Assembly: GCA_030600745.1 (NCBI GenBank)
Contig: JAUVLL010000002.1
Span: 1-32,802, forward strand
Length of the DNA stretch: 32,802 nucleotides
Origin: Spirochaetaceae bacterium
Lineage (GTDB): Bacteria; Spirochaetota; Spirochaetia; B11-G9
Direction of reading: 5' to 3'
Shown here: one piece after another, positions 14,830 to 32,802 of the stretch
Position numbering within the stretch: the stretch's first letter is position 1
Layout of the letters: each line of letters opens with the position of its first letter
Program-made: the position numbers and the translations under genes
Notes under the pieces: generated by a model
Seen by the model: the letters and a program-made list of their open reading frames with translations, nothing else
Databases searched by the model: none
What the model was told of the DNA's origin: nothing

Positions 14830-14994
14830 TATCATTCTCCCCAATAGAAATAATTTCTTTCATAATTCAGACTTCTGCCTGTTATCAGACCATTTAAGTC
14901 TATGTCTATTCATCTATAGCAAATATTCATTGCAAGTTCAATATACTAAATAAAGTTTATTATGTTATTCACTATTAATTCTTAGGTTTTTGTC

Positions 14995-15023
14995 TTGACA
15001 GAGGGACCCGGCATACATATTAT
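14995..15023 (+). promoter_or_regulatory. Sigma70-like promoter for the aminotransferase / TIM-barrel pair
   Basis: TTGACA (14995-15000), 17-nt spacer, TATTAT (15018-15023). Confidence 0.5.
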
Positions 15024-15079
15024 TGGTAAATAATATCGATTAACTGTACTTATTTTGGACAGCTTATGGAGGATAATGT

Positions 15080-16339: not shown

Positions 16340-16344
16340 TCATT

Positions 16345-17187
16345 ATGTGTTTAAGTATAAATACAGATATATTTTCCAGCCGGGGCAATCCATTTCCTAT
16401 ACTGAAGCAAATTGCAGAAAAAGGGTTCAAATATATTCAATGGTCCCACCACTATGGTACTGATTTTTATTATAATAAATCTGAAATTAAGGAAATTAAA
16501 AACAGATTAGATGAATACGGTCTGATCCTTAATGATCTTCATGCAACAATCGGAGTTGAAAAAAGGTGGTTTTCGGAAACTGAATATCAAAGGAAGGCCG
16601 GAGTCGAACTTGTAAAGAACAGAATTGAGATGACAGCAGAGCTTGGAGGAGATGTTATTGTACTTCATCCCTTTAATACTCCTGATCCGGACTTATATGA
16701 TATACATTATAAACAGGGAAAAAAATCATTAAATGAACTTAAAGAGGTTTGCCTGAATACAGGAGTTAAAATTGCTCTTGAAAACCTCACATCCATGCAG
16801 ACTTTAACAACAATAGAGAAATATTTTGATAATTTTAAGGATAATTTTCTTGGATTTTGCTGGGACACCGGACATACAAATAATCTGGAACCTGAAGCAA
16901 TTGATTATGCTGATAAATTTACCAGTGAAAGATTGATTGCACTTCATATTAACGACAATATGGGGGATGGAAGGGACCTTCACGGTATTCCTTTTTCAGG
17001 AACTGCTGATTGGAAAAAAATTACAAAAATTATCTCAAAATCATCTTATTCCGTAAAAAAACCTTTAACTCTGGAAGTAGAACATGGAGAAGAAAAAACA
17101 CTTGATGAATTTATAAAAATTGCAATGGAAAAAGGATTAATAATTAATAAAATGGTAAAAAACCACAGAAAACAGCATAGTCTGTAA
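16345..17187 (+). CDS. Xylose-isomerase-like TIM-barrel protein (sugar phosphate isomerase/epimerase family)
   Basis: The 280-aa product has the typical pattern ..VLHP.. / ..ALEN.. / ..DTGH.. / ..HINDN.. of metal-binding strands. It starts 5 nt after the aminotransferase stop. Confidence 0.7.
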   Translation: MCLSINTDIFSSRGNPFPILKQIAEKGFKYIQWSHHYGTDFYYNKSEIKEIKNRLDEYGLILNDLHATIGVEKRWFSETEYQRKAGVELVKNRIEMTAELGGDVIVLHPFNTPDPDLYDIHYKQGKKSLNELKEVCLNTGVKIALENLTSMQTLTTIEKYFDNFKDNFLGFCWDTGHTNNLEPEAIDYADKFTSERLIALHINDNMGDGRDLHGIPFSGTADWKKITKIISKSSYSVKKPLTLEVEHGEEKTLDEFIKIAMEKGLIINKMVKNHRKQHSL

Positions 17188-17206
17188 TTCAGGTTCTATT
17201 TTATTC

Positions 17207-17914
17207 TCAAAAATTCTTTACGGTAGCATCTGCCTGAGCTTTTTCAATATGCTCCATCATAAGTTTTAGGGACAATTTCGAATTCCCTTTTTTTACAGCA
17301 TTGAATATCTTAATATGATCCTCCAAACCTTTTTCCGGTCGGCCTTTAAGTTTTAAAGTTGTCTGCCTGGTTTTGACAAGAAGACCTTTAGCCATTAAAA
17401 GCATCTTCTCAAACACACTATTTTTGCATGCTGCTGCAAGGGCATCATGAAAAGCAGTATCACCTTCAATCCCGATACCCCCATTTTCAATATCTTCTCT
17501 CATTAAATCAATACTTCTTTCCATCCTTGCTATATCTTCTTCTGTTCTGCGTAAAGCCGCAAGTCTGGCTATTTCAGTCTCAAGAATTCTACGGAATTCA
17601 AGCATTTCAATAATAAGCTCTTTTTCATTTCCCAGAATTTCAGAAAAAGGATTGATAAGGGCATCAATTGAAATCTTTTTTACAAAGGTCCCTCCGCCAA
17701 CTCCAACCCTGGAATCAAGAAAGCCCAAAGTTCCCAGAACACGAAGAGCTTCCCTGATTGAAGCCCGGCTGACCTGAAATAATTCTGACAACTCTCTTTC
17801 ACTTGGAAGCTGATCACCGGTTTTATAAGTGCCGTCAATAATCATGGATTGAAGCTTCTTAAGCACCTCTTCTGATAATCGACGTTTTTTTATCGGCTTA
17901 ATTTTATTATCCAT
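17207..17914 (-). CDS. GntR-family regulator, FadR subfamily (FCD domain)
   Basis: The winged HTH reads LPSERELSELFQVSRASIREALRVLGTLGFL. An all-helical FCD-type C-terminal domain follows. It is the last gene of the minus-strand operon. Confidence 0.85.
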   Translation of the reverse strand: MDNKIKPIKKRRLSEEVLKKLQSMIIDGTYKTGDQLPSERELSELFQVSRASIREALRVLGTLGFLDSRVGVGGGTFVKKISIDALINPFSEILGNEKELIIEMLEFRRILETEIARLAALRRTEEDIARMERSIDLMREDIENGGIGIEGDTAFHDALAAACKNSVFEKMLLMAKGLLVKTRQTTLKLKGRPEKGLEDHIKIFNAVKKGNSKLSLKLMMEHIEKAQADATVKNF

Positions 17915-17931
17915 ATTTCGGGTAATCCTAT

Positions 17932-19380
17932 TTATATTGATTGGATTGCTTCTTCAAAAGCAGTATTAATCATTTCGATGGGTACTTTTTTAATATACCC
18001 CCCCTTCTCCATTGATTCTATAAGGTTTCTGGAATAACTTATCTCTTCCTCTGCCTTTTTAAAAACCTCATCTCTTGTCATTATTACCCTTGCAAGTCCC
18101 TCTTCGATAGCCTGCATGGCTACATCCGCGGCCTCACAGGGAAAAACTCCCGGTTCTTCCATTGTCGCAATTATATTATCCGGTGTTATTCCCCTTTCCT
18201 CCGCATATTTAGCAAGCGATTTTGCTGCCGCTATTGTCATTCCATCAGAAATCTTTTTTGCCCTGACAAGCAAAGCACCCTTCAAAATACCAGGAAAACC
18301 AACAGAATTATTAACCTGATTAGGAAAGTCTCCTCTGCCTGTTGCAACAATAAATGCCCCGGCAGCTTTAGCAGCATAGGGATAGATCTCCGGGACCGGA
18401 TTTGCACATGCAAAAACAATAGATTTTGAAGCCATTTTTTTTATATCGACCGGAGAAACCGTATCCGGGCCTTGTTTGGAAAGTGCAATGAGAACATCCG
18501 CCCCGGTCATAGCTTCACTAAATGTTTCAATTTTACCTGGATTCGTTTTCTGACAGAGTTCCCACTTTCGGTAAAAGCGTTTGTCTTCTTCAATATCTTT
18601 ACGGTCTCTATTAAGAGGACCCTTTGAATCGAAAACTACAATATTTGCAGGATTAGCTCCAGCCTGTATTACAATTCTGGCAATAGTTGAATTTGATGCT
18701 CCTGCACCCAAAAATACAATTTTTACTTCTTCAAGTTTTTTATCAGCCAGTTTAACTGCATTTATCAGACCGGCAAGGGTCACACAGGCTGTTCCCTGTG
18801 CATCATCATGCCATACAGGAATATCACATTCTTCCCGCAGTGTATCAAGCACTTTATAGCAGTTCGGTTGTGATATATCTTCAAGATTAATTGCTCCAAA
18901 ACCAGGCTGGACCATCTTTACAAATTCTATTATTTTATCAGGATCATGCTCACCCTTACTGTTTCTACTGTCAATGCAAAGGGCTGTAGCATCAACTCCC
19001 CCAAGGTACTTCATTAAAAAAGCCTTTCCTTCCATAACCCCAAGACCTCCCGGAGGGGTACAGTCCCCATCACCCAGGACCCTGGTTGAATCGCTTACAA
19101 CAGCAACATAGTTACCTTTATTGGATAAATCATACGCTGCATCATTATCATCTCTTATTATTGTTGATACTTTTGAAACTCCGGGAGTATACCATACATT
19201 AAACCAGTTGAAACCGAAGACACCCGCCTTAGGTACTGTCTGCATCTTACCGCCATAAAATTTATGGGCCTTTTCGGAAAGATTTTTCATGAAATCTGTT
19301 TTAACCCTTGCTTTCTGGCTTTCATTTAGTCCACGTTTTTCTATCTCTTCCTCTATATTTGCTAAATCAAGATTTATCAT
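17932..19380 (-). CDS. NAD(P)-dependent malic enzyme (oxaloacetate-decarboxylating malate dehydrogenase), short prokaryotic type
   Basis: YTPGV, VVSDSTRVLGDGD, MEGKA, INLEDI, HDDAQGTA, FLGAGASN, FACANPVPEI and NNSVGFPG. ATG 19380 follows an AAGGAG RBS; the track start at 19389 is GTG. Confidence 0.85.
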   Translation of the reverse strand: MINLDLANIEEEIEKRGLNESQKARVKTDFMKNLSEKAHKFYGGKMQTVPKAGVFGFNWFNVWYTPGVSKVSTIIRDDNDAAYDLSNKGNYVAVVSDSTRVLGDGDCTPPGGLGVMEGKAFLMKYLGGVDATALCIDSRNSKGEHDPDKIIEFVKMVQPGFGAINLEDISQPNCYKVLDTLREECDIPVWHDDAQGTACVTLAGLINAVKLADKKLEEVKIVFLGAGASNSTIARIVIQAGANPANIVVFDSKGPLNRDRKDIEEDKRFYRKWELCQKTNPGKIETFSEAMTGADVLIALSKQGPDTVSPVDIKKMASKSIVFACANPVPEIYPYAAKAAGAFIVATGRGDFPNQVNNSVGFPGILKGALLVRAKKISDGMTIAAAKSLAKYAEERGITPDNIIATMEEPGVFPCEAADVAMQAIEEGLARVIMTRDEVFKKAEEEISYSRNLIESMEKGGYIKKVPIEMINTAFEEAIQSI

Positions 19381-19403
19381 TAAAAACACTCCTTATTATT
19401 TTT

Positions 19404-20687
19404 TTAGCTGTTTGCTGTATAGTTGGGTAGTATTGAACCGCCAAAAGGGATGATATGAACAAGAGCATCCTTGCCTTTTCTCCCAAGAGCTTCATCCAAA
19501 GCCTGCTGAGGTTCTTTAAAAGGTTTCATAAATATATTTCCGACAAGGGATGGATCCATATCCGATACAAGATATATCTCTGCATTCTTCAGTATCAAAG
19601 CAATTGCAGCTGCTTTATGTCCTCCAAGAATAAAGTTCTTTCGAATTTCCTCTATCATGAGTTCAGGTTTTTCAAATTCTATCATCCACTTTTCGAATTG
19701 TCCCCCACCCAGACCTTCTGTGCATGCTGCAACAAGAATTATAATCCCACCCTCTTTAACCGCATGTTTGGCATTTTCAAGGGCTTTATGGGCCTGATAA
19801 AGATTAATATCTTTAGGATAACCTCCGGGGGAAACAACCACTATATCTGCTTTAGTATCTATCGGACAGCTGTAAAGCCTGTCTATTAATCTACACCCCT
19901 CTCTATGGGCAGCTACAGGATCGCCGGCAAAAGCTCCTATAATTTTTTTATGCTCATCAAGCACAACATTAAAAAGAAAATCAATTTTAATAAAATCAGC
20001 AACCTCTTCGATATCATCTCTAACCGGATTATTAATTAAATTTCCTCCACAGGCTTTGTCCTTCACCATATGACTGTGGTTCTTCTGTATAGCAGAAAAG
20101 GTTGAAACCCCCGGCATAACAGCCTTGTATCCGCCGCTGTAACCGGCAAAATAATGATATTCAATATTTCCAAGACAGATTATTTTATCTGCATGGACAA
20201 CCGGTCTAAAAATATCAACAGGAGTCCCCCTTGATGTCACCCCTAATGATACTACATCATCAGGATCACTATCTATACAGCTTATTCTTATAAAAATGTC
20301 ATCACCAACTAATTTTCTTTTTTCTTCATCTGTCTGCTTCCGATGGCTTCCAAGTCCAAAAACTATTGTTATATCATTGTCCTCTATTCCAGCTCTGTTT
20401 AATTCCATGATCAGTGCCGGCAAAATCTTATAGCCCGGCAACGGTCTTGTAATGTCACTCGTTATAATAACTACCTTTTCACCTTCTTCAAAAATATCAT
20501 AAACAGGCAAACTCTTTATTGGATTTCTTAAAGCCTGTTCAACCACCTCGGCTTCCGAAAGCTGTAGATCAATCTTTTCCACATACATTACTTTCCCAAT
20601 ATTTTTTGCAGGTATTAATAGTGATTTATTCTGCTTTCCAAAGCCCAATTCTACCTTAGTAAAACCTTCTTTCATCTTCTGTATCAT
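19404..20687 (-). CDS. larA: LarA-family nickel-pincer-nucleotide-dependent 2-hydroxyacid racemase/epimerase
   Basis: The 427-aa product has GLGSHR, EYHYFAGYSGGYKAVMPG, NHSH and NLYQAHKALENA. These match the catalytic His/His, the NPN-tethering Lys, the Ni-binding His and the Y-Q-x-x-K substrate motif of L. plantarum LarA (from memory). A GGAGGG RBS is present. Confidence 0.8.
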   Translation of the reverse strand: MIQKMKEGFTKVELGFGKQNKSLLIPAKNIGKVMYVEKIDLQLSEAEVVEQALRNPIKSLPVYDIFEEGEKVVIITSDITRPLPGYKILPALIMELNRAGIEDNDITIVFGLGSHRKQTDEEKRKLVGDDIFIRISCIDSDPDDVVSLGVTSRGTPVDIFRPVVHADKIICLGNIEYHYFAGYSGGYKAVMPGVSTFSAIQKNHSHMVKDKACGGNLINNPVRDDIEEVADFIKIDFLFNVVLDEHKKIIGAFAGDPVAAHREGCRLIDRLYSCPIDTKADIVVVSPGGYPKDINLYQAHKALENAKHAVKEGGIIILVAACTEGLGGGQFEKWMIEFEKPELMIEEIRKNFILGGHKAAAIALILKNAEIYLVSDMDPSLVGNIFMKPFKEPQQALDEALGRKGKDALVHIIPFGGSILPNYTANS

Positions 20688-20708
20688 CTATACCCTCCAT
20701 AATCGCCC

Positions 20709-21578
20709 CTACAGGAGATCTGCCAGAATCTCTACAAGATCTTCGGTCCCTTCCGCTATATGGACCCCGGAATTCCTTAATTCCGCCTCTTTCTTTTCTG
20801 CGGAACCTTCACCATCCGGCGAAACAATTGCTCCCGCATGTCCCATACTGGTATCATTAGGCACATTCTTTCCTGCAATGAGTGCAACAACAGGTTTCGT
20901 AATATGCTCTTTAATATAAGCAGCTGCCAACTCTTCTTCACTGCCACCTATTTCGCCTATCAATACAATTATTTTTGTATCAGGATCATTCTCAAAAAAT
21001 GGAAGAATATCAGCAAACGTTGAGCCGGGGACCATATCACCTCCAACTCCCACTACTGTGGATTGACCTATCCCTTTCTGCTTTAATAAAAATACTGTCT
21101 CATAGCAGTTAGTAGCACTTCGGGACATTATCCCTACATTCCCGGGCATAAAAATCCTGTGTGCCATAAAACCGGCTTTTGCCTTTCCGGGAGAAATTAC
21201 TCCGAAGGAGTTAGGTCCTATAAGCCTGCATCCTTTTTCTTTTGCAAGATGATGAAGTTTCAGCATTTCATGAACAGGGACCCCCTCTGCAATAGTAATT
21301 ACCAATGGAATTCCAGAAATAATAGCCTCATATGCGGCCTTATACATAAATTTCGGCGGCACAAATAATAGAGTAGCATTTGCATCTGTTTCCTCCATCG
21401 CCTCCATTACAGTATTAAATACCGGCACGCCCAGTACTTCCCCGCCGCCTTTCCCCGGAGTAACCCCGGCAACGACCTTTGTTCCATACTCAAGCATCTG
21501 TTCAGTGTGAAATGTTCCTTCTCTTCCGGTAATTCCCTGAACAATAAGTTTTGTATTCTCATCTATAAAGAAACTCAT
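20709..21578 (-). CDS. sucD: Succinyl-CoA synthetase alpha-subunit-like (ADP-forming acid-CoA ligase, CoA-binding / phosphohistidine subunit)
   Basis: [24 protein letters not shown] and SMGHAGAIV (phosphohistidine loop). There is a 4-nt ATGA overlap with the beta subunit. Acid specificity (succinate versus malate or another acid) cannot be read from the sequence. Confidence 0.8.
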
Positions 21579-22717
21579 ACCTTCAGCTCCTGTGCCAGAA
21601 TTTCAACTCCGTTTTTCAGTCCTTCAGCTATTTTGATACTGCCCCTGACACCGGCTATTATCTCAAGCCCCTTTTCCTTATTTGTACCTTCAAGGCGTAT
21701 CACAAGTTTTGTGTCTGCAAAAAGTCCAATTCCGTTTTCAACTCCCCGGGCTATCTCATCACATCTGGTGATCCCTCCAAAAATATTCATAAATATTGTA
21801 TCAACAAGGGGGTTCGATGCCGCTATTCGCAGGGATTCTGTTATGCGATCAGCTGTAGCACCACCTCCAAGATCCAGAGCACAGGTCACAGTCATACCCC
21901 TTTTTGTAATAAGATCAATTGAGGACATTATCATACCCGAACCATTACTGATTACAGCTATATTACCTTCATTATTTATTGGAATATATAGAAGATTAAA
22001 TTTACGGGCTTCAGGAATAAGTTTGTTTTCTTCTATATCATCTCTGAACTCTCTTATATCATCGTGTCTGAAAAGGGAGTTATCATCAATATCAATTTTC
22101 CCATCCAGGGCCATCAATTTATTGTTGTCATCAACAATCAATGGATTTATCTCGGCAAGCATACAATCCATATCAATGAAGATATTATATAACTTCCTGC
22201 ATATATCTTTGAAATCGGAACGATAATTCTGCTCAAGACCGGTTTTATCCATCGCATACTGAATGACAAAATCATTGAGAGGCTCCAGGGGACCAAGGAG
22301 GACTTTAGCTATTTTATCCGGATGCTTTCCGGCTATTTCATTAATCTCTACTCCACCCTCCGGGCTGAAGATCATTACAGGTTTTTTATGTTTCCTATCC
22401 AAAGTAAAGCTGAGATACATCTCTTTTTTCAATTCAATCATTTCAGGAAGAAAAATATATTTTACCGGAAGGTCCTTAATCTTCATTTCAAACATGGCCT
22501 TCCCTTTTTTAAGAAGTTCTGAATCACCTGATGCAAATTGAATACCCCCGGCCTTCCCGCGTCCACCAGTCTGGACCTGTGCCTTTAAGACAAGCGGATA
22601 CTTCATTTTTCCTCTAAGCTTAGTCAATTCTTCCATCGAACCAACAACATTACCGCTTCTGCAGGGCAGATCATATTTTTCAAAAATTTCATGGGCTTTA
22701 TACTCCAGCAGTTTCAT
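21575..22717 (-). CDS. sucC: Succinyl-CoA synthetase beta-subunit-like (ATP-grasp subunit)
   Basis: MKLLEYKAHEIFEKY, VLKAQVQTGGRGKAGGI, INPL, an LDGK segment and GGITRCDEIARG. Confidence 0.8.
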   Translation of the reverse strand: MKLLEYKAHEIFEKYDLPCRSGNVVGSMEELTKLRGKMKYPLVLKAQVQTGGRGKAGGIQFASGDSELLKKGKAMFEMKIKDLPVKYIFLPEMIELKKEMYLSFTLDRKHKKPVMIFSPEGGVEINEIAGKHPDKIAKVLLGPLEPLNDFVIQYAMDKTGLEQNYRSDFKDICRKLYNIFIDMDCMLAEINPLIVDDNNKLMALDGKIDIDDNSLFRHDDIREFRDDIEENKLIPEARKFNLLYIPINNEGNIAVISNGSGMIMSSIDLITKRGMTVTCALDLGGGATADRITESLRIAASNPLVDTIFMNIFGGITRCDEIARGVENGIGLFADTKLVIRLEGTNKEKGLEIIAGVRGSIKIAEGLKNGVEILAQELKV

Positions 22718-22722
22718 ATACT

Positions 22723-24096
22723 TTATTCCTCTTCAGCCCAAAGCTCTTCATCGCCGGGGACCGTATTGTTCTTCCTAATATTCGAGATTCTTGTAATATT
22801 AAGCAGATGTTTGTAATAGAAATTTTCAGAGATACTGTTATTACCCCATGACCCGCAACCCAGAGTACTGGATGCATTGAGACCGTTCAGGAAACTCCCC
22901 CCGCTGCTGGTAGCACAGGTCTGATTCACAAGGACCCTGCTTACGGGTACACGCATTCCAAGTTCATGGATGTGTTCCTTGTTATTAGAGTGGATCGAAA
23001 CGGAATGGCCCTTGCCCTCTATTTCCAGATTATCGATTGCAATATCCACAGCTTCAGAAAAATCGTTGTATTTAAAAGGAGTAATTACCGAAAACATCTT
23101 TTCCTTACGCAGGAGGCTCTTTTTATTGGAAACTTCTTCCGGCATAACAATAACTTTGGTCTCTTTCGGGATTTCCAAACCTGCCGCCCCGGCAATTACA
23201 CTAACACTCTGTCCAACCATATCCTTATTAATCTTCCCATCCGGGAACAGTACATTCAGAAGCTTTTTCCGCTCCTTGTCGCTCTCAACCCAGTAGCCGC
23301 CATAGGCTTCCAGTTCCTTTCTCATCTCCTCATATTTATCCACCGGGGTGATGATACTCTGTTCACCGGAGCAGATAATTCCACGATCGAAGATTCTTCC
23401 GTCAATAATCATTTTGACCGCTTCTTTTATATCAACATCCCGATCTATGATAGTCTGCACATTCCCCTGACCAACCCCGAATGAAGGTTTCCCGCTCGAA
23501 TATGCGGCCCTGACCATCCCCGGTCCACCGGTAGCTACGATCACATCCACATTCTCCATCAGCAGATTGGTACGCTTCACACTTGCCCCGTCTACATACT
23601 GAATAAGATTATCCGGCGCACCATGTTTCTTAATTGCCTCATTCCACCTGTCGACCAGAAATTTGGTAGTTTTCTCTGCCCTGGGATGAGGAGCAATAAT
23701 AATTGAATTTCTTCCCTTAACAGCTGCCATAGCATTGGCCATGGCAGTAACCTGGGGGTTGGTAGTCGGCTGTATTGCTCCGACAACTCCAACAGGCTTG
23801 GCAATCTCTATAATACCTGTTTCTTCATCCTCTTTAATGGTCCCAATAGATTTTTTACCCTTCAGGCTGTACCACAGAATTTTTGCCTTTCCAAGGTTTT
23901 TTGCAGTTTTGTATTCTACAGCACCCATTCCGGTTTCCGCTACCGCCATCTTTGCCAGCTCTTCTGCATTATCAAAAACATATTTGGCAATCTCCCGGAC
24001 AATCCTGTCTATAGCTTTCTGGTCAAAAGACTCAATTTTTTTAAGTGCTTTTCCTGACTTTACTACCAGTTCTTTAATATATTCCTCATCTGTCAT
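22723..24096 (-). CDS. CoA-acylating aldehyde dehydrogenase, Clostridium kluyveri SucD-type (succinate-semialdehyde dehydrogenase, acylating) family
   Basis: Collinear with C. kluyveri SucD (from memory): AKPVGVVGAIQPTTNP, AMAAVKGRNSIIIAPHPRA, ATGGPGMVRAAYSSGKP, GIICSGEQS (catalytic Cys), LGCGSWGNNSISEN. ATG 24096 (MTDEEY) follows a GGGAGAAG RBS; the track start at 24129 is TTG. Confidence 0.8.
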   Translation of the reverse strand: MTDEEYIKELVVKSGKALKKIESFDQKAIDRIVREIAKYVFDNAEELAKMAVAETGMGAVEYKTAKNLGKAKILWYSLKGKKSIGTIKEDEETGIIEIAKPVGVVGAIQPTTNPQVTAMANAMAAVKGRNSIIIAPHPRAEKTTKFLVDRWNEAIKKHGAPDNLIQYVDGASVKRTNLLMENVDVIVATGGPGMVRAAYSSGKPSFGVGQGNVQTIIDRDVDIKEAVKMIIDGRIFDRGIICSGEQSIITPVDKYEEMRKELEAYGGYWVESDKERKKLLNVLFPDGKINKDMVGQSVSVIAGAAGLEIPKETKVIVMPEEVSNKKSLLRKEKMFSVITPFKYNDFSEAVDIAIDNLEIEGKGHSVSIHSNNKEHIHELGMRVPVSRVLVNQTCATSSGGSFLNGLNASSTLGCGSWGNNSISENFYYKHLLNITRISNIRKNNTVPGDEELWAEEE

Positions 24097-24127
24097 TCTA
24101 CTTCTCCCTGTAAATATCTTCCAATGC

Positions 24128-24146
24128 AAGACCTTTCAAAGGTCTT
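24128..24146. promoter_or_regulatory. Perfect 19-bp palindrome AAGACCTTT-C-AAAGGTCTT; candidate operator (GntR/FadR?) or 5' mRNA hairpin
   Basis: It is a perfect 9-1-9 inverted repeat. It lies just downstream of the predicted -10 of the minus-strand operon promoter and about 32 nt upstream of ATG 24096. Confidence 0.4.
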
Positions 24147-24154
24147 ACCTTTAT

Positions 24155-24184
24155 ATTATTAGCCCTTTAATTTCTTTTTGTCAA
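24155..24184 (-). promoter_or_regulatory. Sigma70-like promoter for the aldehyde dehydrogenase-to-GntR operon
   Basis: On the minus strand: TTGACA (24184-24179), 17-18-nt spacer, TAATAA/AATAAT (24161-24155). Confidence 0.35.
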
Positions 24185-24324
24185 TCACCAGCCCGACCTT
24201 CACTGTTTACCGGATGTCTATCAATTTAACACAATTCTAATATTACTATAATCTATTCTAAACATAACCCCTATAGTTTTTCTAATGATGATCAAGGCAG
24301 CAGCTGAAATTTTAATAATAAGGC

Positions 24325-24423: not shown

Positions 24424-26445
24424 ATGAAAAAGAAACTTATTGTTGTTCTGTTATCGCTGTTCATTGTATTCAGCGTATTTTCAGGCGGCGACAAAGAAAC
24501 AACCACAGAGGATACGGGCGGATACATTGCAGCTCCAACCGTTTCTTATGCTATGGGGATAACAACTGAATTCCCTCAGCAGCTTGAACTGGTTGATTAT
24601 GAGAAACAGACCGGTGAAAAACTGGAATTTACGGGTAATCCATTATTTGCTGAAAGAGAGAAAAGCAAAGATCTTCCATCTGTAGATCAACGACTGCCTG
24701 AAGAACCCCTTGTTGTTCTCCCGTATGATGTAATTGGTAAATACGGCGGCCAGCTTAAAGGTATGTGTATCTCTTATGAATCAGGTACATCCGAAGTTAT
24801 GGCATGGCGTCACGCCAATCTTGTCAGATTTAGTGATGACATGAGCACATTAGTGCCGAATGTCGCTAAAGCATGGAAATGGAACAGTGACTTTACTGAA
24901 ATTACATTTACATTGCGTAAAGGCCACAAATGGTCTGACGGCGACCCCTTTGATGCTGATGATATGGTTTTTTATGTAAATGACATTCTTCTTAACAAAG
25001 AGATCCACAAGGTTATTCCTTCTCCATGGAGCGGAGCTGTTCCAAGTATAGAGAAAATTAATGATGTCACTGTTAAGATGAAATTCGAAAATGCATTTAC
25101 AGGTTTACTTTATTATTTAGGTGGAAGCGGATCTTATTTTGATGCATTTGCACCAAAACATTTTCTGGAACAGTATCACATTGAATATAACGCCAATGCC
25201 GATAAAGAAGCAAAGGCAGCCGGGTATGATAACTGGGTACAGCAGTTCGGCACTTACTGGAATAAATGGAAAGATGCAGTAGTTGCAGGTCCTGAGGGAG
25301 TTAAGGTCCCAACCCTTGAAAGTCATATTCTGCAGGAAGTACCTACAACACAACGCCGTATCTATATTGCCAATCCTTACTACTTTAAAGTGGATACAGC
25401 AGGTAATCAGCTTCCTTATGTTGATTATCATTATGAAAGATTTCTTGAAAAGCAGTTATGGCCTCTTGAAATTATGAACGGTAATATTGATCAGAAAGCA
25501 CAGAACATGCCCCTTGATATCTATACCGTACTTAAAGAAAACGAGAAAAAAGGACAATATGAATTGCAGCTTCCTTCCGGACAGGTTGGACCGACAATGA
25601 TATTTAACCAGACAAGTGATGATCCTGTTTTAGGAAAAATCTTTAGTGATGTCCGCTTCAGGTATGCCATGTCCCTGGCAATTAATCGTAATGAGATCAA
25701 TGAGTCTCTTTTTCTCGGACTGGGAACTCCTGAACAGGCGCTTCCTTTAAATGTGCCCTATGTTACCGATAAAGACAGGAAATTCATGACTGAATATAAT
25801 CCTGATAAAGCAAACAAACTGCTTGATGAAATGGGCTTGAAGATGGGATCTGATGGATACAGAATGGGTCCTGACGGGAAACCGTTTACAGTACTGTGGG
25901 AATACACTCTTCAGTATGTATGGACAACGGATTTTCCAGCTCTTGTATCTGAATACTGGAAAGATGTGGGTGTAAAAGTACTGCTTAAAGAAGTAACCAC
26001 TCAGCTTACCAGAGATAAACAGAAAGCCAATACACTGGATATTACAAGCGAATGGATGGCCCCCTTTGAACCAAGTATGATTTCAACTCCTCACCTGTTT
26101 CTTCCTCCGTATTCCGGACATTGGCCTATTATGGGTCTGCCATGGATGGATTGGAAGACCAGCAACGGATCATCAGGGGTAAAACCACCTGCATGGGTAC
26201 TGGATCTATGGGACATCGCAGCTGAATGGACCACTCTTGTTCCAGGTTCATCAAGATATATTGAACTTGGAAAGAAGATTATAAAGATCAATCAGGAAAA
26301 TCTGCCTGTTATTGGTACTCTTGGCAATATTCCATTGATAACTGTAGTTTCAGACAGGCTCGGAAATGCACCGGAATGGACAATTAACAGTACTTTCTTT
26401 GGTTATTCATATCCGTATAGAGCTGATCAGTGGTTTATCAAATAA
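24424..26445 (+). CDS. ABC transporter substrate-binding protein, family 5 (Opp/Dpp-type), unusually long at 673 aa
   Basis: It has an N-terminal signal sequence MKKKLIVVLLSLFIVFSVFSGG with no lipobox Cys, and family-5 SBP composition. A GAAGGAGAG RBS is present. It is the first gene of a 5-gene transporter operon. Confidence 0.85.
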   Translation: MKKKLIVVLLSLFIVFSVFSGGDKETTTEDTGGYIAAPTVSYAMGITTEFPQQLELVDYEKQTGEKLEFTGNPLFAEREKSKDLPSVDQRLPEEPLVVLPYDVIGKYGGQLKGMCISYESGTSEVMAWRHANLVRFSDDMSTLVPNVAKAWKWNSDFTEITFTLRKGHKWSDGDPFDADDMVFYVNDILLNKEIHKVIPSPWSGAVPSIEKINDVTVKMKFENAFTGLLYYLGGSGSYFDAFAPKHFLEQYHIEYNANADKEAKAAGYDNWVQQFGTYWNKWKDAVVAGPEGVKVPTLESHILQEVPTTQRRIYIANPYYFKVDTAGNQLPYVDYHYERFLEKQLWPLEIMNGNIDQKAQNMPLDIYTVLKENEKKGQYELQLPSGQVGPTMIFNQTSDDPVLGKIFSDVRFRYAMSLAINRNEINESLFLGLGTPEQALPLNVPYVTDKDRKFMTEYNPDKANKLLDEMGLKMGSDGYRMGPDGKPFTVLWEYTLQYVWTTDFPALVSEYWKDVGVKVLLKEVTTQLTRDKQKANTLDITSEWMAPFEPSMISTPHLFLPPYSGHWPIMGLPWMDWKTSNGSSGVKPPAWVLDLWDIAAEWTTLVPGSSRYIELGKKIIKINQENLPVIGTLGNIPLITVVSDRLGNAPEWTINSTFFGYSYPYRADQWFIK

Positions 26446-26478
26446 ACAGATAGATCAATTCTTCTATAATATAATAAT

Positions 26479-26517
26479 ACCGGATCCGGGCAGAAGCTTG
26501 TCTGAGTCCGGTTTTTT
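26479..26517 (+). terminator. Hairpin + T6: putative intra-operon attenuator/terminator after the SBP gene
   Basis: ACCGGA...TCCGGT outer stem with an inner CAGA/TCTG pairing, followed by TTTTTT (26512-26517). The stem is imperfect. Confidence 0.4.
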
Positions 26518-26554
26518 ACAAGCTAATTAATATTTTTTATAAGGGGGAATAATA

Positions 26555-27553
26555 ATGCTTGAATTATTTGTACGCCGCCTTGGTACTGCGTGTGTTACCA
26601 TGTTTTTATTATCTATTGTCGCCTTTATCCTCATTCAGCTTCCTCCGGGAGATTTTGTAGATACCTATGCAGGTAAAAAAACTCAGGGAGGGGTTATCAT
26701 TACCCAGGATGAACTGGATACAATGCGAAGCAGACTGGGTCTTGACAGACCGTTATACCAGCAATATGGGAAATGGGTAGGTAATCTTTTTAAGGGTGAT
26801 ATGGGGTTTTCCTGGGAATACCACAGGCCGGTAAAAGATGTAATAGCAGAGAGGCTAACCATGACTCTTATTCTTGCTTTTTCGACCCTTATTTTTACAT
26901 ATGTTGTTGCAATTATTATTGGGATCTATTCTGCCGTCCGGCAGTATTCAATAGGTGATAATCTGGCAACAGTTATAGGGTATCTGGGTCTGGCAACCCC
27001 CGGGTTTTTGTTTGCATTGATTCTTATGTTTCTTGGACAGAAATGGTTCGGTATAAGTGTCGGTGGGTTGTTTTCTCCCGAGTTTGAAGATGCTGCATGG
27101 AGTTTTGCGAAATTAATGGATCTGTTTTCCCATCTCTGGGTCCCTGTTGTTGTTCTCGGTATGGCAGGTACTGCATTCCAGATTCGTACCATGAGGGCCA
27201 CTCTTCTCGATGAGCTTAACAAAATGTATGTTACATCTGCAAGGGCGGGAGGAATACCTGAATTCAAACTGCTTATGAGGTATCCTGTTCGTATGGCACT
27301 CAATCCCATAGCATCAACTCTTGGATGGGAACTGAGTAAGATAATTTCAGGCGCTCCAATAATCGGTATAGTTTTATCTTTACCCACTCTTGGTCCATTG
27401 TATGTTAATTCACTGCTTAGTCAGGACATTTATCTGGCCGGTGCCTTAATACTTATCTTTTGTTCTCTTGTAATTGTTGGTACTTTTATATCAGATATAC
27501 TTCTTATGGTCCTGGACCCACGGCTAAGGCTTGGAAAGGCAGGTGTAAAATGA
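26555..27553 (+). CDS. ABC transporter permease (DppB/OppB-like)
   Basis: The 332-aa polytopic membrane protein has the EAA-type loop region ..RATLLDELNKMYVTSARAGG.. An AAGGGGGA RBS is present. Confidence 0.85.
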   Translation: MLELFVRRLGTACVTMFLLSIVAFILIQLPPGDFVDTYAGKKTQGGVIITQDELDTMRSRLGLDRPLYQQYGKWVGNLFKGDMGFSWEYHRPVKDVIAERLTMTLILAFSTLIFTYVVAIIIGIYSAVRQYSIGDNLATVIGYLGLATPGFLFALILMFLGQKWFGISVGGLFSPEFEDAAWSFAKLMDLFSHLWVPVVVLGMAGTAFQIRTMRATLLDELNKMYVTSARAGGIPEFKLLMRYPVRMALNPIASTLGWELSKIISGAPIIGIVLSLPTLGPLYVNSLLSQDIYLAGALILIFCSLVIVGTFISDILLMVLDPRLRLGKAGVK

Positions 27554-28674
27554 AAGATGAAAATTATACAGATGCCGCTAACAAAAAAGTCAACAGAAGG
27601 GATATTGCCACCCACGGGCAGTTAATGTGGTGGCAGTTTAAGAAAAATAAAATGGCCATTGTTGCAGGCAGTGTACTCCTTATTTTTATAATACTAGCAA
27701 TTTTTGCTGAATTTATTGCCCCCTATTCACCTGGTAAACGTAATACAACTTACCTGCAGTCACCTCCAATGAAAATTCATCACTTTGATTCGGAAGGGAA
27801 ATTCCACTTTCAGGCTTTTATTTACGGATGGGATAATAAACGTGATCCTGAAACTTTAAAGTTAAATGCTATTACGGATACATCAAGAATTATTCCGGTC
27901 TATCTTTTTGTTAAGGGAGAACCTTATAAAGTCTTAGGTTTATTTGAACTAAAATTACATCTGTTCGGGGTTAAAGAGGGGATGATAAATTTATTTGGGA
28001 CAGATCAGCTTGGAAGAGATATTTTTTCACGCCTGATGTTTGCAACAAGAATCTCACTTTCTGTCGGGGCTATCGGGGTGTCGTTTGTATTTTTAATCGG
28101 ACTCCTTATGGGCGGTATTGCCGGATATTTCGGCGGTATAGTCGATGAAATTATTATGCGTATGATGGAATTCCTTCGTTCTATTCCCACACTTCCACTA
28201 TGGCTGGCTCTTTCAGCAGCACTCCCCAGGGAATGGTCTGCCTTAAAAGTCTATATAGCTGTAACGTTAATTCTTGCATCTGTAGGATGGACCAATCTGG
28301 GTCGGCGTGTTCGAAGTAAACTTCTTTCAATGAGAGATGAAGATTTTATTCTTTCCGCTAAACTGGCAGGATGTACAGACAGAAGAATTATAGTAAATCA
28401 TATGCTTCCCTCTTTTATGAGTTATATTATAGTGGATCTGACAATATCATTCCCATTTATTATTCTGGCTGAAACTTCCTTAAGTTTTCTTGGGCTGGGC
28501 CTTCGGGAACCTATTGTCAGTTGGGGAGTTCTTCTTTACTCGGCACAAAATATTCATACCCTGTCCCAAATACCATGGCTGCTTATAACTGCACTTTTTG
28601 TTGTTATATCAGTGTTGGCTTTTAATTTTCTGGGTGACGGACTTCGGGACGCAGCAGATCCCTTTTCGAAATAG
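27550..28674 (+). CDS. ABC transporter permease (DppC/OppC-like)
   Basis: ATG 27550 overlaps the upstream TGA (ATGA). The product starts MKDENYTDAANKK, and the EAA loop reads ..RSKLLSMRDEDFILSAKLAGC.. The track start at 27460 lies inside the previous gene. Confidence 0.85.
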   Translation: MKDENYTDAANKKVNRRDIATHGQLMWWQFKKNKMAIVAGSVLLIFIILAIFAEFIAPYSPGKRNTTYLQSPPMKIHHFDSEGKFHFQAFIYGWDNKRDPETLKLNAITDTSRIIPVYLFVKGEPYKVLGLFELKLHLFGVKEGMINLFGTDQLGRDIFSRLMFATRISLSVGAIGVSFVFLIGLLMGGIAGYFGGIVDEIIMRMMEFLRSIPTLPLWLALSAALPREWSALKVYIAVTLILASVGWTNLGRRVRSKLLSMRDEDFILSAKLAGCTDRRIIVNHMLPSFMSYIIVDLTISFPFIILAETSLSFLGLGLREPIVSWGVLLYSAQNIHTLSQIPWLLITALFVVISVLAFNFLGDGLRDAADPFSK

Positions 28675-28686
28675 GTGACACTTAGA

Positions 28687-29688
28687 ATGGAGAAAAAATA
28701 TTTAATGCAGGTAAAAAACCTGCAAATTTCATGGCACCTCGATAAGGCACTAATTCCTATTGTCTGTGGTCTGGATTTTAGTCTTGAGCCGGGGAAAGTA
28801 CTTGCCCTTGTAGGAGAAAGCGGATGTGGTAAAAGTGTTACCTCCCTGTCCCTACTCCGACTGCTGGCAAAAGAGCTGAAAATAGTTGAAGGTGAGATCC
28901 TCTTTAATGGTACTGATAATGATGAACCTGTTGATATTGCCGAATTGAATCCGAGAGGAAAGGGAATTCAGGAAATTAGAGGTGGAATGGCCTCAATGAT
29001 ATTTCAGGAGCCTATGAGCTCTTTTTCTCCCCTTTATACTATTGGACATCAGATTATTGAGGTAATACAGCAACATAAGCAAAATACCAAAGAAGAAGCC
29101 AGAGCAAGAACTATTGATCTTCTACGAAAAGTGGGACTCGCTGACCCTGAAAAGGCCGTTGACCGTTTCCCTGGTGAGTTCTCGGGAGGGATGAGGCAGC
29201 GGGCTATGATAGCCAAGGCCCTTTCATGTAATCCACGGCTTCTTATAGCAGATGAGCCCACTACTGCACTGGATGTTACAATTCAGGCTCAGATTCTTGA
29301 TCTTATGAATGAAGTAAAAGATGAATTCGGAACTTCAATTATCTTTATTTCCCATGATCTTGGTGTAGTCGGACAGGTTGCGGATGATGTGGCTATTATG
29401 TATATGGGCAGCATTGTTGAAAAAGGTCCTGTTAAAGAAATTTTTAAACATCCAAAACATCCTTATACAATGAAATTACTGGATGCTATTCCCCGCCTTG
29501 GTGATCTGGGAGACCGCAAGAGACTGGAACCAATCAGAGGAAGTGTTCCAACCCTGTTTAACAGATCCAACGGTTGCGCATTTCATGACAGATGTGATTA
29601 TTTTATGAAGGGTATTTGTGATGGTTCTTTTCCTGATCTTAAGGAAATTTCTGAAGACCAACAGGTTGCATGTCATCTGTATGAATAA
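28687..29688 (+). CDS. ABC transporter ATP-binding protein (DppD/OppD-like)
   Basis: Walker A GESGCGKS, signature FSGGMRQR, Walker B LLIADEPTTALD, and a C-terminal Opp-type extension with Cys residues. The start is ambiguous (GTG 28675, ATG 28687 or ATG 28705). Confidence 0.8.
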   Translation: MEKKYLMQVKNLQISWHLDKALIPIVCGLDFSLEPGKVLALVGESGCGKSVTSLSLLRLLAKELKIVEGEILFNGTDNDEPVDIAELNPRGKGIQEIRGGMASMIFQEPMSSFSPLYTIGHQIIEVIQQHKQNTKEEARARTIDLLRKVGLADPEKAVDRFPGEFSGGMRQRAMIAKALSCNPRLLIADEPTTALDVTIQAQILDLMNEVKDEFGTSIIFISHDLGVVGQVADDVAIMYMGSIVEKGPVKEIFKHPKHPYTMKLLDAIPRLGDLGDRKRLEPIRGSVPTLFNRSNGCAFHDRCDYFMKGICDGSFPDLKEISEDQQVACHLYE

Positions 29689-29700
29689 GGAGAGTTATTA

Positions 29701-30795
29701 ATGAGTACATTAGTTGAGATCAAAGATCTAAAAAAATATTTTCCGGTAGGCAGAACAGGAATATTTGGTAAACACAAATCCCTGCTGAAGGCTGTTGATA
29801 ATGTATCTTTTACAATAAAAAAAGGTGAAAATCTTGGTTTGGTAGGAGAGAGCGGATCGGGTAAAACAACTCTGGGACGAACTCTTATCCATCTAATCGA
29901 ACCTACCGGAGGGGAGGTTCTGTTTAATACGGGAGAAAATAAGATAGATGTTGCAAAATTACACCGGGGTGAACTGCGGCAACAGTGGCGTAATATGCAG
30001 ATGATTTTTCAGGACCCCTATGCCTCACTAAACCAGCGAATGACAGTGAGAGACATTATAGGTGAACCTCTTGTAGCAAACAAGTTGGCCAGTGGAGACA
30101 AGCTTAACGAAAAGATTAAAGATATGGCAGTTCTTTGCGGACTAAAGACTTCTCAGCTCAGCCGTTATCCCCATGCTTTCAGCGGAGGACAAAGACAAAG
30201 AATAGCTATAGCGCGGTCTCTTATTATGCATCCTGAATTTATAGTATGTGATGAAGCAGTTTCAGCTCTTGATGTTTCTATTCAGGCACAGATACTAAAC
30301 CTCCTGAAAGACTTGCGCCATGAGCTGGATCTTACCTATCTGTTTGTTGCACACGATTTAAGTGCAGTAGCTTATGCCTGTGACAGGGTAGCAGTTATGT
30401 ACCTTGGCCGAATAGTTGAAATGGCTGTTACTGAAGAAATTTATTACAAACCGAAGCATCCATACACGGAAGCTCTTATGTCTGCAATCCCTCCGGATGA
30501 TCCTGAAATGACAATGCAGAAACTTTTTGTACGGGGAGAACAGCCAAGCCCGGTTAATCCCCCATCAGGTTGCCCTTTCCATCCCAGATGTAAGTTTGCT
30601 GATGACAGCCGCTGCGTAAATGAAGTGCCGGTCCTTAAGGAAGTATTCCCTGAACATTTTGTCTCCTGCCATTATGCAGAATCCCTGTCACTTAAAGGAG
30701 CTCTGCAGTTTCAAAATAAACTAAGAGCGGCAAATAATAAAAAAGAAGTTGAAAACCTAAATACAAGACGGACAGAAATTCTGGCAAAATTATGA
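29701..30795 (+). CDS. ABC transporter ATP-binding protein (DppF/OppF-like)
   Basis: Walker A GESGSGKTT, signature FSGGQRQR, Walker B FIVCDEAVSALD. An AAGGAGAG RBS is present. Confidence 0.85.
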   Translation: MSTLVEIKDLKKYFPVGRTGIFGKHKSLLKAVDNVSFTIKKGENLGLVGESGSGKTTLGRTLIHLIEPTGGEVLFNTGENKIDVAKLHRGELRQQWRNMQMIFQDPYASLNQRMTVRDIIGEPLVANKLASGDKLNEKIKDMAVLCGLKTSQLSRYPHAFSGGQRQRIAIARSLIMHPEFIVCDEAVSALDVSIQAQILNLLKDLRHELDLTYLFVAHDLSAVAYACDRVAVMYLGRIVEMAVTEEIYYKPKHPYTEALMSAIPPDDPEMTMQKLFVRGEQPSPVNPPSGCPFHPRCKFADDSRCVNEVPVLKEVFPEHFVSCHYAESLSLKGALQFQNKLRAANNKKEVENLNTRRTEILAKL

Positions 30796-30918
30796 GGCAG
30801 AAACTATACTTGAGATAAATTTGGTTGATCGATCGCATTATAATAGAGGTTCTCATTTGGGGCATTTTTTACGGTATTTTATATTACACTTTTCACCGTC
30901 AAAAATAAAGAATATAAC

Positions 30919-30946
30919 TTGACATATCTCAAAGACATGATATAAA
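30919..30946 (+). promoter_or_regulatory. Sigma70-like promoter upstream of the sulfatase pair
   Basis: TTGACA (30919-30924), 16-nt spacer, TATAAA (30941-30946). Confidence 0.4.
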
Positions 30947-31003
30947 GAGAGGTTTACATAAGAATCCTGACATTGTCGTAAGATAAAGGTACTGATAAAA
31001 ATT

Positions 31004-31237
31004 ATGGAAAAGAAGAATTTATTATTTATTACTACTGACCAGTGGAGGGCTGAGAGTTTATCCTCTCTGGACCATCCTGTTGTTAAAACTCCGAATCTTG
31101 ATGCACTCGCAGCTGATGGAGTTACATTTAAGAACCATTTTGCACAGTGTATACCATGCGGGCCAAGCAGAGCTTCTATTTATACAGGTATGTATATGCA
31201 GAACCACAGATCAGTGGAAAACGGAACTCCCCTTGAT
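31004..31237 (+). repeat. Direct repeat: 5' 234 nt of sulfatase 1 versus sulfatase 2 (32569-32802)
   Basis: By manual codon alignment 206 of 234 nt are identical. Perfect runs are 31037-31089 (53 nt) and 31179-31237 (59 nt, cut by the window end). Of the 28 mismatches, 24 fall in codons 29-59. Confidence 0.85.
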
Positions 31238-32533
31238 GCCCGGCACACAAATATTGCTCTTGAGTTTAGAAAACTGGGCTATGCTCCCGCACTTGTCGGA
31301 TATACAGATACTACCCAGGATCCCCGCTTATTCTCGCCCAACGATCCGGATCTAAAAACATACGAAGGTATTCTACCGGGCTTTAAATGTCTGGCAATGT
31401 CAAGTGAAGAATTCCCGGAGGACTGGGCTCTGTGGCTGGAAGAGAAGGGGTATCCTGTTCCTGATAATCCCAGGGACCTTTATTACAAAGCTGTCAAGGG
31501 TTACCCCGGGGCAGAAGATCGGGGTATAACCTATGCACCTGCTCCGTATCCAAAAGAAATGAGTGAAACGGCATTTGTAACGTATAATGCTGAAAAATTT
31601 ATCAAGAAATCTGCCGGTAAACCATGGTTTCTCCATATGAGCTATCTAAAACCTCACAGACCTTATCTTGCACCGGAACCATACAATAAAATGTATTCAC
31701 CGGATAATGTTCCGGCCTTTAAACGTGCACCTACCATAGAAGAGGAAGCAAAACAGCATCCACTACTCGAATATAAACTAAAACAGACTTTAAGCAAGGG
31801 ATTTTATTCGAAAGAAATTTATCCCAGGGATGATAAATCCCTAAAGCAGCTGAGAGCTACATACTACGGTCTCATGACAGAAGTGGATGATAATATTGGC
31901 AGGATTGTAGAGCTCCTTAAAAGGATCGGTCAATATGAAAACACAGTAATTATCTTTACAAGTGATCACGGAGCCCAACTTGGTGACCACCATATTATTG
32001 GGCAGGCACCCTATTTTGATCAGACTTTTCGTGTGCCCCTGATCATAAGCATCCCAGATAAAGCAGGAGAAATACAAAAGGACTCAAAAGTGGATGCCTT
32101 TACAGAGAGTATTGATATTTTACCAACTGCTCTCAGTCTTTTCGGGGGAGATATTCCTGTACAGTGTGACGGCCGGTCCCTGCTTCCATTCCTTTATGGC
32201 AATGAACCTGAGAACTTCAGAACCGAAGCACACTGGGAGGTTGATTTCAGGTATGATGAACCAGGCACTGAGTTTGAAAGATCATCCTTAAATGTAATAA
32301 GAGACAACGATTACAAGTATGTTCACTTTGCCGAAATGCCGGATCTTTTATTTGATCTTAAAAATGACCCTGATGAGCTTCATAATCTTGCTGAAGATCT
32401 CTCATACACAAAAGTTATGTTGAAATATGCAAAAAAGTTACTTTCATGGAGAATGGAAAATGATGAGAGAACCCTCGCATATATGCTGGCTGGATCCGAA
32501 GGGATTACTGTTAAGCCTAAAACCTATAAATAA
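31004..32533 (+). CDS. Sulfatase-family hydrolase, Cys-type (formylglycine motif C-G-P-S-R), no signal peptide
   Basis: LLFITTDQWR (metal-binding Asp strand) starts at residue 6. Also present: CIPCGPSRASIYTG, YLKPHRPY, FTSDHG and a DPDELHNL tail. Confidence 0.85.
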   Translation: MEKKNLLFITTDQWRAESLSSLDHPVVKTPNLDALAADGVTFKNHFAQCIPCGPSRASIYTGMYMQNHRSVENGTPLDARHTNIALEFRKLGYAPALVGYTDTTQDPRLFSPNDPDLKTYEGILPGFKCLAMSSEEFPEDWALWLEEKGYPVPDNPRDLYYKAVKGYPGAEDRGITYAPAPYPKEMSETAFVTYNAEKFIKKSAGKPWFLHMSYLKPHRPYLAPEPYNKMYSPDNVPAFKRAPTIEEEAKQHPLLEYKLKQTLSKGFYSKEIYPRDDKSLKQLRATYYGLMTEVDDNIGRIVELLKRIGQYENTVIIFTSDHGAQLGDHHIIGQAPYFDQTFRVPLIISIPDKAGEIQKDSKVDAFTESIDILPTALSLFGGDIPVQCDGRSLLPFLYGNEPENFRTEAHWEVDFRYDEPGTEFERSSLNVIRDNDYKYVHFAEMPDLLFDLKNDPDELHNLAEDLSYTKVMLKYAKKLLSWRMENDERTLAYMLAGSEGITVKPKTYK

Positions 32534-32568
32534 CAGTTGGTAAAAAACAATGGAGGTATGAAGGTTAA

Positions 32569-32802
32569 ATGAAAAAGAAAAATCTATTATTTATTACTAC
32601 GGACCAGTGGAGGGCTGAGAGTTTATCCTCTCTGGACCATCCTGTTGTTAAAACCCCAAATCTTGATGCTCTGGCGGCTGATGGTGTTCTCTTTGAAAAT
32701 CACTTTACCCAGTGTATTCCAAGCGGCCCGGGCAGGGCCTCACTTTATACAGGTATGTATATGCAGAACCACAGATCAGTGGAAAACGGAACTCCCCTTG
32801 AT
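32569..32802 (+). CDS. Second sulfatase paralogue, Ser-type motif (S-G-P-G-R), truncated by the window end
   Basis: MKKKNLLFITTDQWRAESLSSLDHPVVKTPNLDALAADGVLFENHFTQCIPSGPGRASLYTGMYMQNHRSVENGTPLD. A GGAGG sits 12 nt upstream. It is open at the right edge, so it is absent from the ORF track. Confidence 0.8.
   Translation, partial: MKKKNLLFITTDQWRAESLSSLDHPVVKTPNLDALAADGVLFENHFTQCIPSGPGRASLYTGMYMQNHRSVENGTPLD

Follow-up and report, generated by a model that had tools for sequence, protein, structure and literature searches.

Ectopic gene conversion is a known process by which duplicated bacterial genes evolve in concert, as exemplified by tufA and tufB of Salmonella. We analyzed a stretch of 32,802 nt from a Spirochaetaceae bacterium (GenBank assembly GCA_030600745.1, contig JAUVLL010000002.1, positions 1 to 32,802 of the forward strand), referred to below as the window, that ends in two tandem hydrolase paralogues in which the precursor of the catalytic nucleophile is Cys in the first gene and Ser in the second. 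As in systems of the tufA/tufB type, paralogues are more similar than orthologues over parts of these genes, the tracts are short and their patterns are lineage-specific. In contrast to that type, homogenization is only partial here, and the nucleophile precursor and four other islands stay distinct. It is this persistence of a Cys/Ser difference under recurrent homogenization that is new.

The closest described enzymes are the phosphonate monoester hydrolases/phosphodiesterases (PMH/PehA proteins) of Rhizobium leguminosarum and Burkholderia caryophylli (PDB 2VQR and 2W8S), together with the related arylsulfatases 4UPH, 4UPK, 4UPI and 4UPL. PMHs are placed by SulfAtlas in subfamily S1_0, beside true sulfatases, and 21% of all S1 sulfatases are Ser-type and confined to anaerobes or facultative anaerobes (PMC5066984). 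The specificity residue flanking the nucleophile is Thr107 in RlPMH and His103 in SpAS1, and engineered Cys-to-Ser variants of five arylsulfatases and four PMHs, which stay unmodified in E. coli, showed a mean loss of kcat/KM of about tenfold (PMC5488252). These laboratory variants share with the second gene of our pair the family, the substitution and the residue. They are engineered single mutants characterized in vitro, however, whereas the second copy is natural, conserved and co-varies at T47, G55 and L/M59. The anaerobic sulfatase maturases (anSMEs), which are cytoplasmic, accept (C/S)x(P/A)xR and carry two auxiliary Fe-S clusters in a SPASM domain (PMC7771511). Klebsiella AtsA/AtsB and the anSME of Clostridium perfringens (4K36) resemble the present system in the S-x-P-x-R signal and in the anSME gene found in the neighborhood in relatives. 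AtsA is exported and belongs to another S1 subfamily, whereas the enzyme described here is predicted to be cytoplasmic and PMH-like with no export signal, and the anSME of the window is internally deleted. To our knowledge, no maturase class other than anSME acts on Ser.

The pair is laid out as follows:

31004-32533, + strand: gene 1, 509 codons, Cys-type PMH/arylsulfatase-like hydrolase of the alkaline-phosphatase superfamily; Cys52 is TGC at 31157-31159
31037-31089, + strand: putative conversion tract 1 on the copy-1 side, 53 nt, identical to 32602-32654; window-specific variant in both copies
31090-31178, + strand: nucleophile cassette of copy 1, codons 29-59, CIPCGPSR; groups with copy 1 of other genomes and not with gene 2
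31179-31237, + strand: putative conversion tract 2 on the copy-1 side; its 59 nt recur exactly at 32744-32802, where the window cuts the run off
32534-32568, + strand: spacer between the genes, 35 nt; GGAGG at 32552-32556, 12 nt before the ATG of gene 2
32569-32802, + strand: gene 2, the Ser-type paralogue, first 78 codons, cut by the window end; Ser52 is AGC at 32722-32724
32655-32743, + strand: cassette of copy 2, CIPSGPGR; between the tract copies 32602-32654 and 32744-32802

Aligned without gaps, the two genes differ at 28 of their first 234 nt (88.0% identity), and a repeat search of the window also recovered a 234-nt repeat at 88%. The original prediction, which was made from the letters of the window, had described this identity over 78 codons, the perfect runs of 53 nt and at least 59 nt that bracket a divergent block with 24 mismatches, and the Cys- versus Ser-type motif; we reproduced all of them. 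Codons 29-59 indeed hold 24 of the 28 mismatches, with 16 synonymous and five non-synonymous codon changes, and the block between the perfect runs is 89 nt long (about 27% mismatch). The nucleophile motif reads CIPCGPSRASIYTG in gene 1 and CIPSGPGRASLYTG in gene 2, and the pattern [CS]-x-P-x-R...TG is found in the maturation signals of both (CGPSRASIYTG and SGPGRASLYTG, respectively). When mismatches were placed at random over all sites, two such perfect runs were obtained in 0 of 200,000 trials; confining the placement to the 92 sites variable in the family gave a probability of 5e-6, and confining it to third codon positions gave 1.6e-4. The mismatches are therefore clustered far beyond chance. 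Comparing synonymous and non-synonymous divergence between flanks and cassette, a check that the original prediction had proposed, gave a synonymous divergence (dS) for the window pair of 0.11 in the flanks and saturation in the cassette; orthologue dS in the flanks ranges from 0.25 to 0.85. Gene 1 is intact, and so is the portion of gene 2 that lies in the window.

Paralogue identity along full-length pairs of other genomes (designated by L and a number below) swings between 0.62 and 1.00 within a genome and tops orthologue identity in several windows, such that divergence is not uniform along these pairs. Interlocus conversion is expected to leave alternating closeness to paralogue and orthologue and tracts longer than expected, and both were found using identity, dS, bootstraps and permutation. 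At nt 58-69 of the gene, for instance, each genome carries a variant common to its two copies: TCCTCTCTGGAC in the window, TCTCTATTGGAT in L001, TCCCTCCTGGA in L006 and TCTCTGCTGG in L085. Trees of separate segments were incongruent: the window pair was monophyletic in 100% of bootstraps for nt 34-86 and in 86% for nt 176-234, whereas for nt 87-175 it was all copy-2 sequences that were monophyletic in 100%. Segments 856-1035 and 1216-1395 gave 0% support for orthology, and the genome pairs of L001 and L085 clustered instead. By permutation, perfect tracts were significant at 34-86 in the window (P=0.001), at 601-710 (P<5e-5) and 1228-1325 (P=4e-4) in L087, at 964-1031 and 1330-1386 in L001 (P=0.008) and at 922-995 in L003 (P=0.006). 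No significant perfect tract was detected by permutation in L006 or L085, whose two copies are separated by 2.4 and 1.4 kb, respectively.

Orthology-type and concerted-type sites formed runs in all 10 genome pairs, with P ranging from <0.0002 to 0.022, and concerted sites outnumbered the cross pattern in 10 of 10 pairs (binomial P<0.05 in six). Moreover, mean paralogue dS (0.58-0.88) does not exceed that of orthologues (0.67-0.74) despite the older duplication, as homogenization predicts. Gene conversion in the flanks, as the original prediction had it, is thus supported by genome-specific shared variants, incongruent segment trees, significant tracts and clustered site patterns. Both tracts of the window are copy-2-like, their nearest outside relatives being copy-2 sequences, and gene 1 equals copy 2 of L087, the nearest copy-2 orthologue, over nt 176-251, so that tract 2 may reach about 76 nt. 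Because of this, the donor in the window was probably copy 2 and the recipient copy 1. Taken together, the sequences indicate that this is a case of repeated short-tract gene conversion in which the nucleophile motif was never overwritten. We found no report in the literature of gene conversion between Cys- and Ser-type paralogues, nor of a natural Ser-type PMH, within an incomplete coverage.

Our comparison identified 24 nucleotide sites that are diagnostic of all copy-1 versus all copy-2 sequences, and these fall into five clusters (nt 129-163, 784-799, 1055-1068, 1158-1207 and 1405-1509). Expressed in codons, the islands are the nucleophile motif, ~262-267, 352-364, ~386-403 and 469-503, the last two ranges being converted from the diagnostic nucleotide sites. 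The cassette is therefore copy-specific, as had been claimed, but it is one of five islands and not the only one. The proteins show 20 fixed differences, at positions 47, 52, 55, 59, 262, 267, 352, 353, 355, 362, 364, 403, 469, 470, 476, 492-494, 498 and 501. Three of the five fixed sites of the motif island change the amino acid (codons 47, 52 and 55), and the diagnostic site at nt 129 is synonymous. Among copy-2 orthologues, non-synonymous divergence (dN) of the cassette is 0.03 versus a dS of 0.46. We infer, short of proof, that selection acts against cassette convertants, and the mismatch barrier (24 of 89 nt) could contribute.

Pairs with Cys first and Ser second were found in the window, L001, L003/4/5/89/90, L006, L085/86, L087 and L088, which represent at least seven lineages of Spirochaetia from seeps and vents, and neither type has been lost in any of the roughly seven. 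The full-length copies all measure 1530 nt without indels, and the 35-nt spacer of the window recurs in L001, L003, L089 and L090. The nearest genomes are metagenome-assembled genomes of Spirochaetia from seeps and vents, and the window sequence is almost complete in one cold-seep metagenome run. The gene 1 protein has no exact match in public assemblies, and searches of genome contigs, metagenome contigs and cluster members did not recover the full gene 2 of the window population; the protein nearest to the gene 2 fragment is identical at 77 of 78 residues. In a whole-gene neighbor-joining tree, the copy-2 (Ser) sequences were monophyletic in 99% of bootstraps. Since the single-copy outgroup L008 presents A47, C52 and S55, the Ser motif of copy 2 is derived. 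The original prediction had allowed for either selection or a separate origin behind the different cassettes. The former is supported by inference, and we rejected the latter: only 5-7 of 31 residues distinguish the cassette proteins, and Cys is the state of the outgroup.

Both copies are under strong purifying selection (dN/dS of 0.086 among copy-1 and 0.067 among copy-2 orthologues), and these low values show both to be working genes. All copy-2 orthologues, like gene 2, have Ser in place of Cys in the maturation motif. Beyond them, Ser is very rare in the PMH-like family. No Ser-type member was detected at about 80 further genome loci of the family or at 61 further loci from metagenomes; two of the 120 nearest protein cluster representatives are Ser-type, both of them copy-2 orthologues, and about 123 motif-bearing representatives of 50%-identity clusters include one Ser-type entry, a fragment. 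What is also new is a natural, conserved Ser-type member of an already known family and its pairing with a Cys twin. As a separate observation, a 123-nt contig that is flanked on either side by remnants of adapters and is identical to the Ser cassette of gene 2 (32685-32789) was found in a run labelled metatranscriptomic. This contig may be weak evidence for transcription of gene 2, the library label being ambiguous.

Gene 1 matches PDB 2vqr (E 1.7e-139) and 2w8s (E 2.3e-137) over its full length, and the arylsulfatases 4uph and 4upk also match. Asp12, the C-x-P-x-R...TG motif, Asn73, the His of the KPH motif and Asp320/His321 of the PMH/PehA proteins all align with gene 1. Pfam PF00884 scores 172 bits in gene 1 against a cut-off of 25 and is also carried by copy-2 orthologues; NCBIfam PehA (NF045661) is by far the best model for gene 1 (587 bits), under its equivalog cut-off of 900. 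All full-length copies are 509 aa long, in keeping with the ~510 aa of the cytoplasmic PMHs, which likewise have no signal peptide. Indeed, neither gene leaves room for one: the strand of the metal ligand Asp12 begins at residue 5, and the alignment starts at residue 1 of both gene 1 and native PMH, with no N-terminal extension. These matches assign the pair to the cytoplasmic arylsulfatase/PMH group (PehA, SulfAtlas S1_0) and not to the classical sulfatases. The original prediction had spoken of classically periplasmic sulfatases and remarked that neither protein has a signal peptide. The remark stands, but the absence is expected, because PMH-like enzymes start directly with the metal-binding strand. 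We accordingly rejected a classical periplasmic sulfatase with a lost signal peptide in favor of the cytoplasmic PMH-like family.

The pair nevertheless differs from PMH/PehA in more than its score. Every copy has Asp102 at the specificity position next to the nucleophile, which is Thr107 in RlPMH and His103 in SpAS1; Asp likewise occupies this position in 117 of 117 close homologues and 48 of 57 distant representatives. Gln333 (GDHHIIGQ) replaces Lys337 of RlPMH in the two copies as well as in the 25 nearest cluster representatives, while more distant relatives have Lys. Copy 2, in addition, has Ser where PMHs have Cys. The pair thus belongs to a large uncharacterized PMH/arylsulfatase subgroup with Asp at the specificity position, for which "sulfatase" is a family label only, and Asp102 and Gln333 suggest a substrate class unlike those of the characterized enzymes. 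For such genes, an annotation as "sulfatase" with an expected signal peptide is misleading.

The window also carries a maturase gene:

3525-4442, - strand: anSME, deleted; in-frame loss of 69 codons between two AGACTGCC direct repeats

This gene scores 320 bits against TIGR03942 (cut-off 349) and covers profile positions 2-256 of 363. The anSME of L082 is intact, with 377 aa, a full-length match to PDB 4k36 and Cys at positions 255, 261, 276, 317, 320, 326, 330 and 347. Relative to it, the deletion takes Cys276, Cys317, Cys320 and Cys326 plus one of Cys261/330. Of the eight Cys that bind the two auxiliary Fe-S clusters (SPASM domain), the window anSME has thus lost four or five. An unbranched 2033-nt unitig spans the deletion, and source-run unitigs show no allele other than the deleted one. 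In relatives, intact anSME genes are located in or beside the gene neighborhood of the pair, and in all lineages copy 2 has retained Pro54, Arg56 and, further downstream in the maturation signal, LYTG. The absence of a signal peptide does not conflict with maturation by anSME, because anSME acts in the cytoplasm.

We propose a joint explanation with an old tandem duplication, short-tract homogenization, protected islands and two non-equivalent isozymes of the formylglycine type, to which we give a probability of roughly 0.72. Our data show its first part: in anaerobic spirochaetes (the window comes from one of deep-sea sediment), a cytoplasmic hydrolase gene was duplicated in tandem before the split of the at least seven lineages, and the motif of copy 2 then changed by the point mutations A47T, C52S (TGC to AGC), S55G and I59L/M. 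Non-reciprocal recombination over ~50-110 nt between the copies of one genome has repeatedly homogenized most of the gene, and in the window it produced the identical runs of 53 nt and at least 59 nt, whereas the five islands have stayed copy-specific in every lineage. The rest is more tentative. Convertants that overwrite an island would be removed by selection, aided by a local mismatch density that hinders heteroduplex formation. The cell would consequently keep two isozymes that are not equivalent. The Cys of copy 1 would be matured to formylglycine by anSME; copy 2, with its full S-x-P-x-R...TG, would most likely be matured by anSME as well, and the substrate ranges of the two probably differ. 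The maturase would be an anSME encoded elsewhere in this genome or, formerly, the window's own.

Several points weigh against this explanation. The maturase deletion weakens the case for conversion of Ser52 to formylglycine in this genome, and a purely mechanical effect of mismatches could mimic selection on the cassette. Gene 2 is visible for 78 codons, with the full-length picture coming from orthologous pairs of other genomes, and it is the original assembler, together with synteny, that supports how the flanks are joined across the 53-nt repeat. Finally, subgroup members with Asp at the site flanking the nucleophile are biochemically uncharacterized.

An assembly artefact, through either chimerism of the contig or the merging of two strains at the 5' end of gene 2, could in principle create identical runs. 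The window ends inside the second repeat, coverage in the source run X1 is low (about 7-10x) and, with k=31, an assembly graph does not resolve which flanks belong together on the two sides of a 53-nt repeat. Against this, independent k=31 Logan unitigs of the same run show zero differences from the window, and one of them (32234-32631) runs from the end of gene 1 through the spacer into gene 2, of which it covers the first 63 nt. The unitigs break exactly where a 31-mer lies wholly in the 53-nt shared node, on both sides and in both copies; because both left and both right flanks enter this one node, both copies truly contain the 53-nt sequence. The same order, 35-nt spacer and type of mosaic are moreover found in at least four genomes assembled by other groups, and we regard an artefact as very improbable. 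Even harder to credit is that the runs reflect constraint at the nucleotide level (an RNA element or codon selection) or independent recent duplications within lineages with parallel Cys-to-Ser changes. The runs do fall in well-conserved protein segments, but the sequence that the two copies share varies by genome, at synonymous as well as non-synonymous sites, and constraint offers no explanation for this. Copy 2 is monophyletic, the synonymous nt 129 is among its diagnostic sites, and no Rfam match was found. The genome-specific sequence and the gene trees already contradict such a reading. It is a different matter whether conversion is real but the cassette persists neutrally, recombination being able neither to start in nor to cross a block with ~27% mismatch. 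The 24 mismatches in the 89 nt of the window cassette, the tracts that stop at the edges of the divergent block and the other divergent islands without an obvious catalytic residue are all in line with such a barrier. The fixed cassette sites are, however, mostly amino-acid-changing (codons 47, 52 and 55), dN is 0.03 versus a dS of 0.46 in the copy-2 cassette and neither type is lost in any of the ~7 lineages, such that we consider neutral persistence unlikely.

The remaining alternative concerns the chemistry of copy 2, which might need no maturase at all if the unmodified Ser52 attacks the substrate directly, like Ser102 of alkaline phosphatase. Nine enzymes of the family with an engineered, unmodified Ser in place of Cys work at about one tenth of the original catalytic efficiency (PMC5488252). 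In copy 2, Ser is fixed and under strong conservation, and gene 1 and the visible gene 2 are intact even though the window maturase is without most of its auxiliary-cluster Cys. On the other hand, Pro54, Arg56 and LYTG are kept in all lineages, although they have structural roles too; intact anSME genes lie in or next to the neighborhood in relatives, and a second anSME may exist elsewhere in this genome. We therefore hold direct attack by Ser52 to be possible but less than probable. It is a further and rather unlikely step that copy 2 is a natural formylglycine-independent enzyme, kept beside the Cys twin as the version that works when the oxygen-sensitive Fe-S maturase is limiting or, as in the window, broken. 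If this were true, anti-conversion selection on the motif would represent a trade-off in which the better nucleophile depends on a maturase and the one free of this need is roughly tenfold weaker.

Under the explanation that we prefer, with two protected isozymes, the pair constitutes a natural experiment: recombination offers sameness, which was never taken in seven lineages, and this argues that Cys and Ser forms differ functionally in vivo. Our results suggest that the two forms are not interchangeable. This bears on why some anaerobes use Ser and not Cys as the formylglycine precursor, for which there is no accepted explanation, and a matched pair of proteins with ~85% identity and 20 fixed differences is direct test material. 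The source-run unitigs also contain a minor C-to-A variant at 32733 in the gene 2 cassette (depth 3 of 13), which points to strain heterogeneity.

Upstream of the pair, the window presents the following features, the importer components being assigned with Pfam:

24424-30795, + strand: ABC importer, peptide/opine-type, directly upstream of gene 1
24424-26445, + strand: SBP_bac_5 binding protein
26555-27553 and about 27550-28674, + strand: two permeases
28675-29688 and 29701-30795, + strand: two ATPases
30796-31003, + strand: intergenic region before gene 1, 208 nt

A TTGACA (30919-30924) followed by a 16-nt spacer and TATAAA (30941-30946) was read by eye upstream of gene 1 and is absent from the list of the consensus scan. 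No convincing promoter or terminator was detected in 30600-32802, and no Rfam family matched in this interval, including the 208-nt region. The order regulator, importer, Cys gene and Ser gene was found in L001 and L003/L004. In the window, a block of about 16 kb (8244-24229) sits between an HTH-cupin regulator and the importer, which are adjacent in L001 and L003. Its genes encode an MttB-like methyltransferase, an AsnC regulator, a gamma-glutamyltranspeptidase, an M20 peptidase, a glutamate-2,3-aminomutase-like radical SAM protein, a class III aminotransferase, a LarA-like protein, a malic enzyme, a succinyl-CoA-ligase-like protein and an aldehyde dehydrogenase. An MttB-AsnC module lies between the two hydrolase copies in L006 (10001-15457), and an M20 peptidase gene lies between those of L085 (7090-11530). 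Finally, signs of gene decay surround the maturase gene at 158-985, 1069-1710 and 4541-4775, all on the - strand: they comprise a remnant of a Kbl/BioF-type PLP enzyme with a large internal deletion, a second Kbl-like open reading frame without both ends and an open reading frame of the Zn-dependent alcohol dehydrogenase family with 275 aa versus 341 aa in the contig of a relative.

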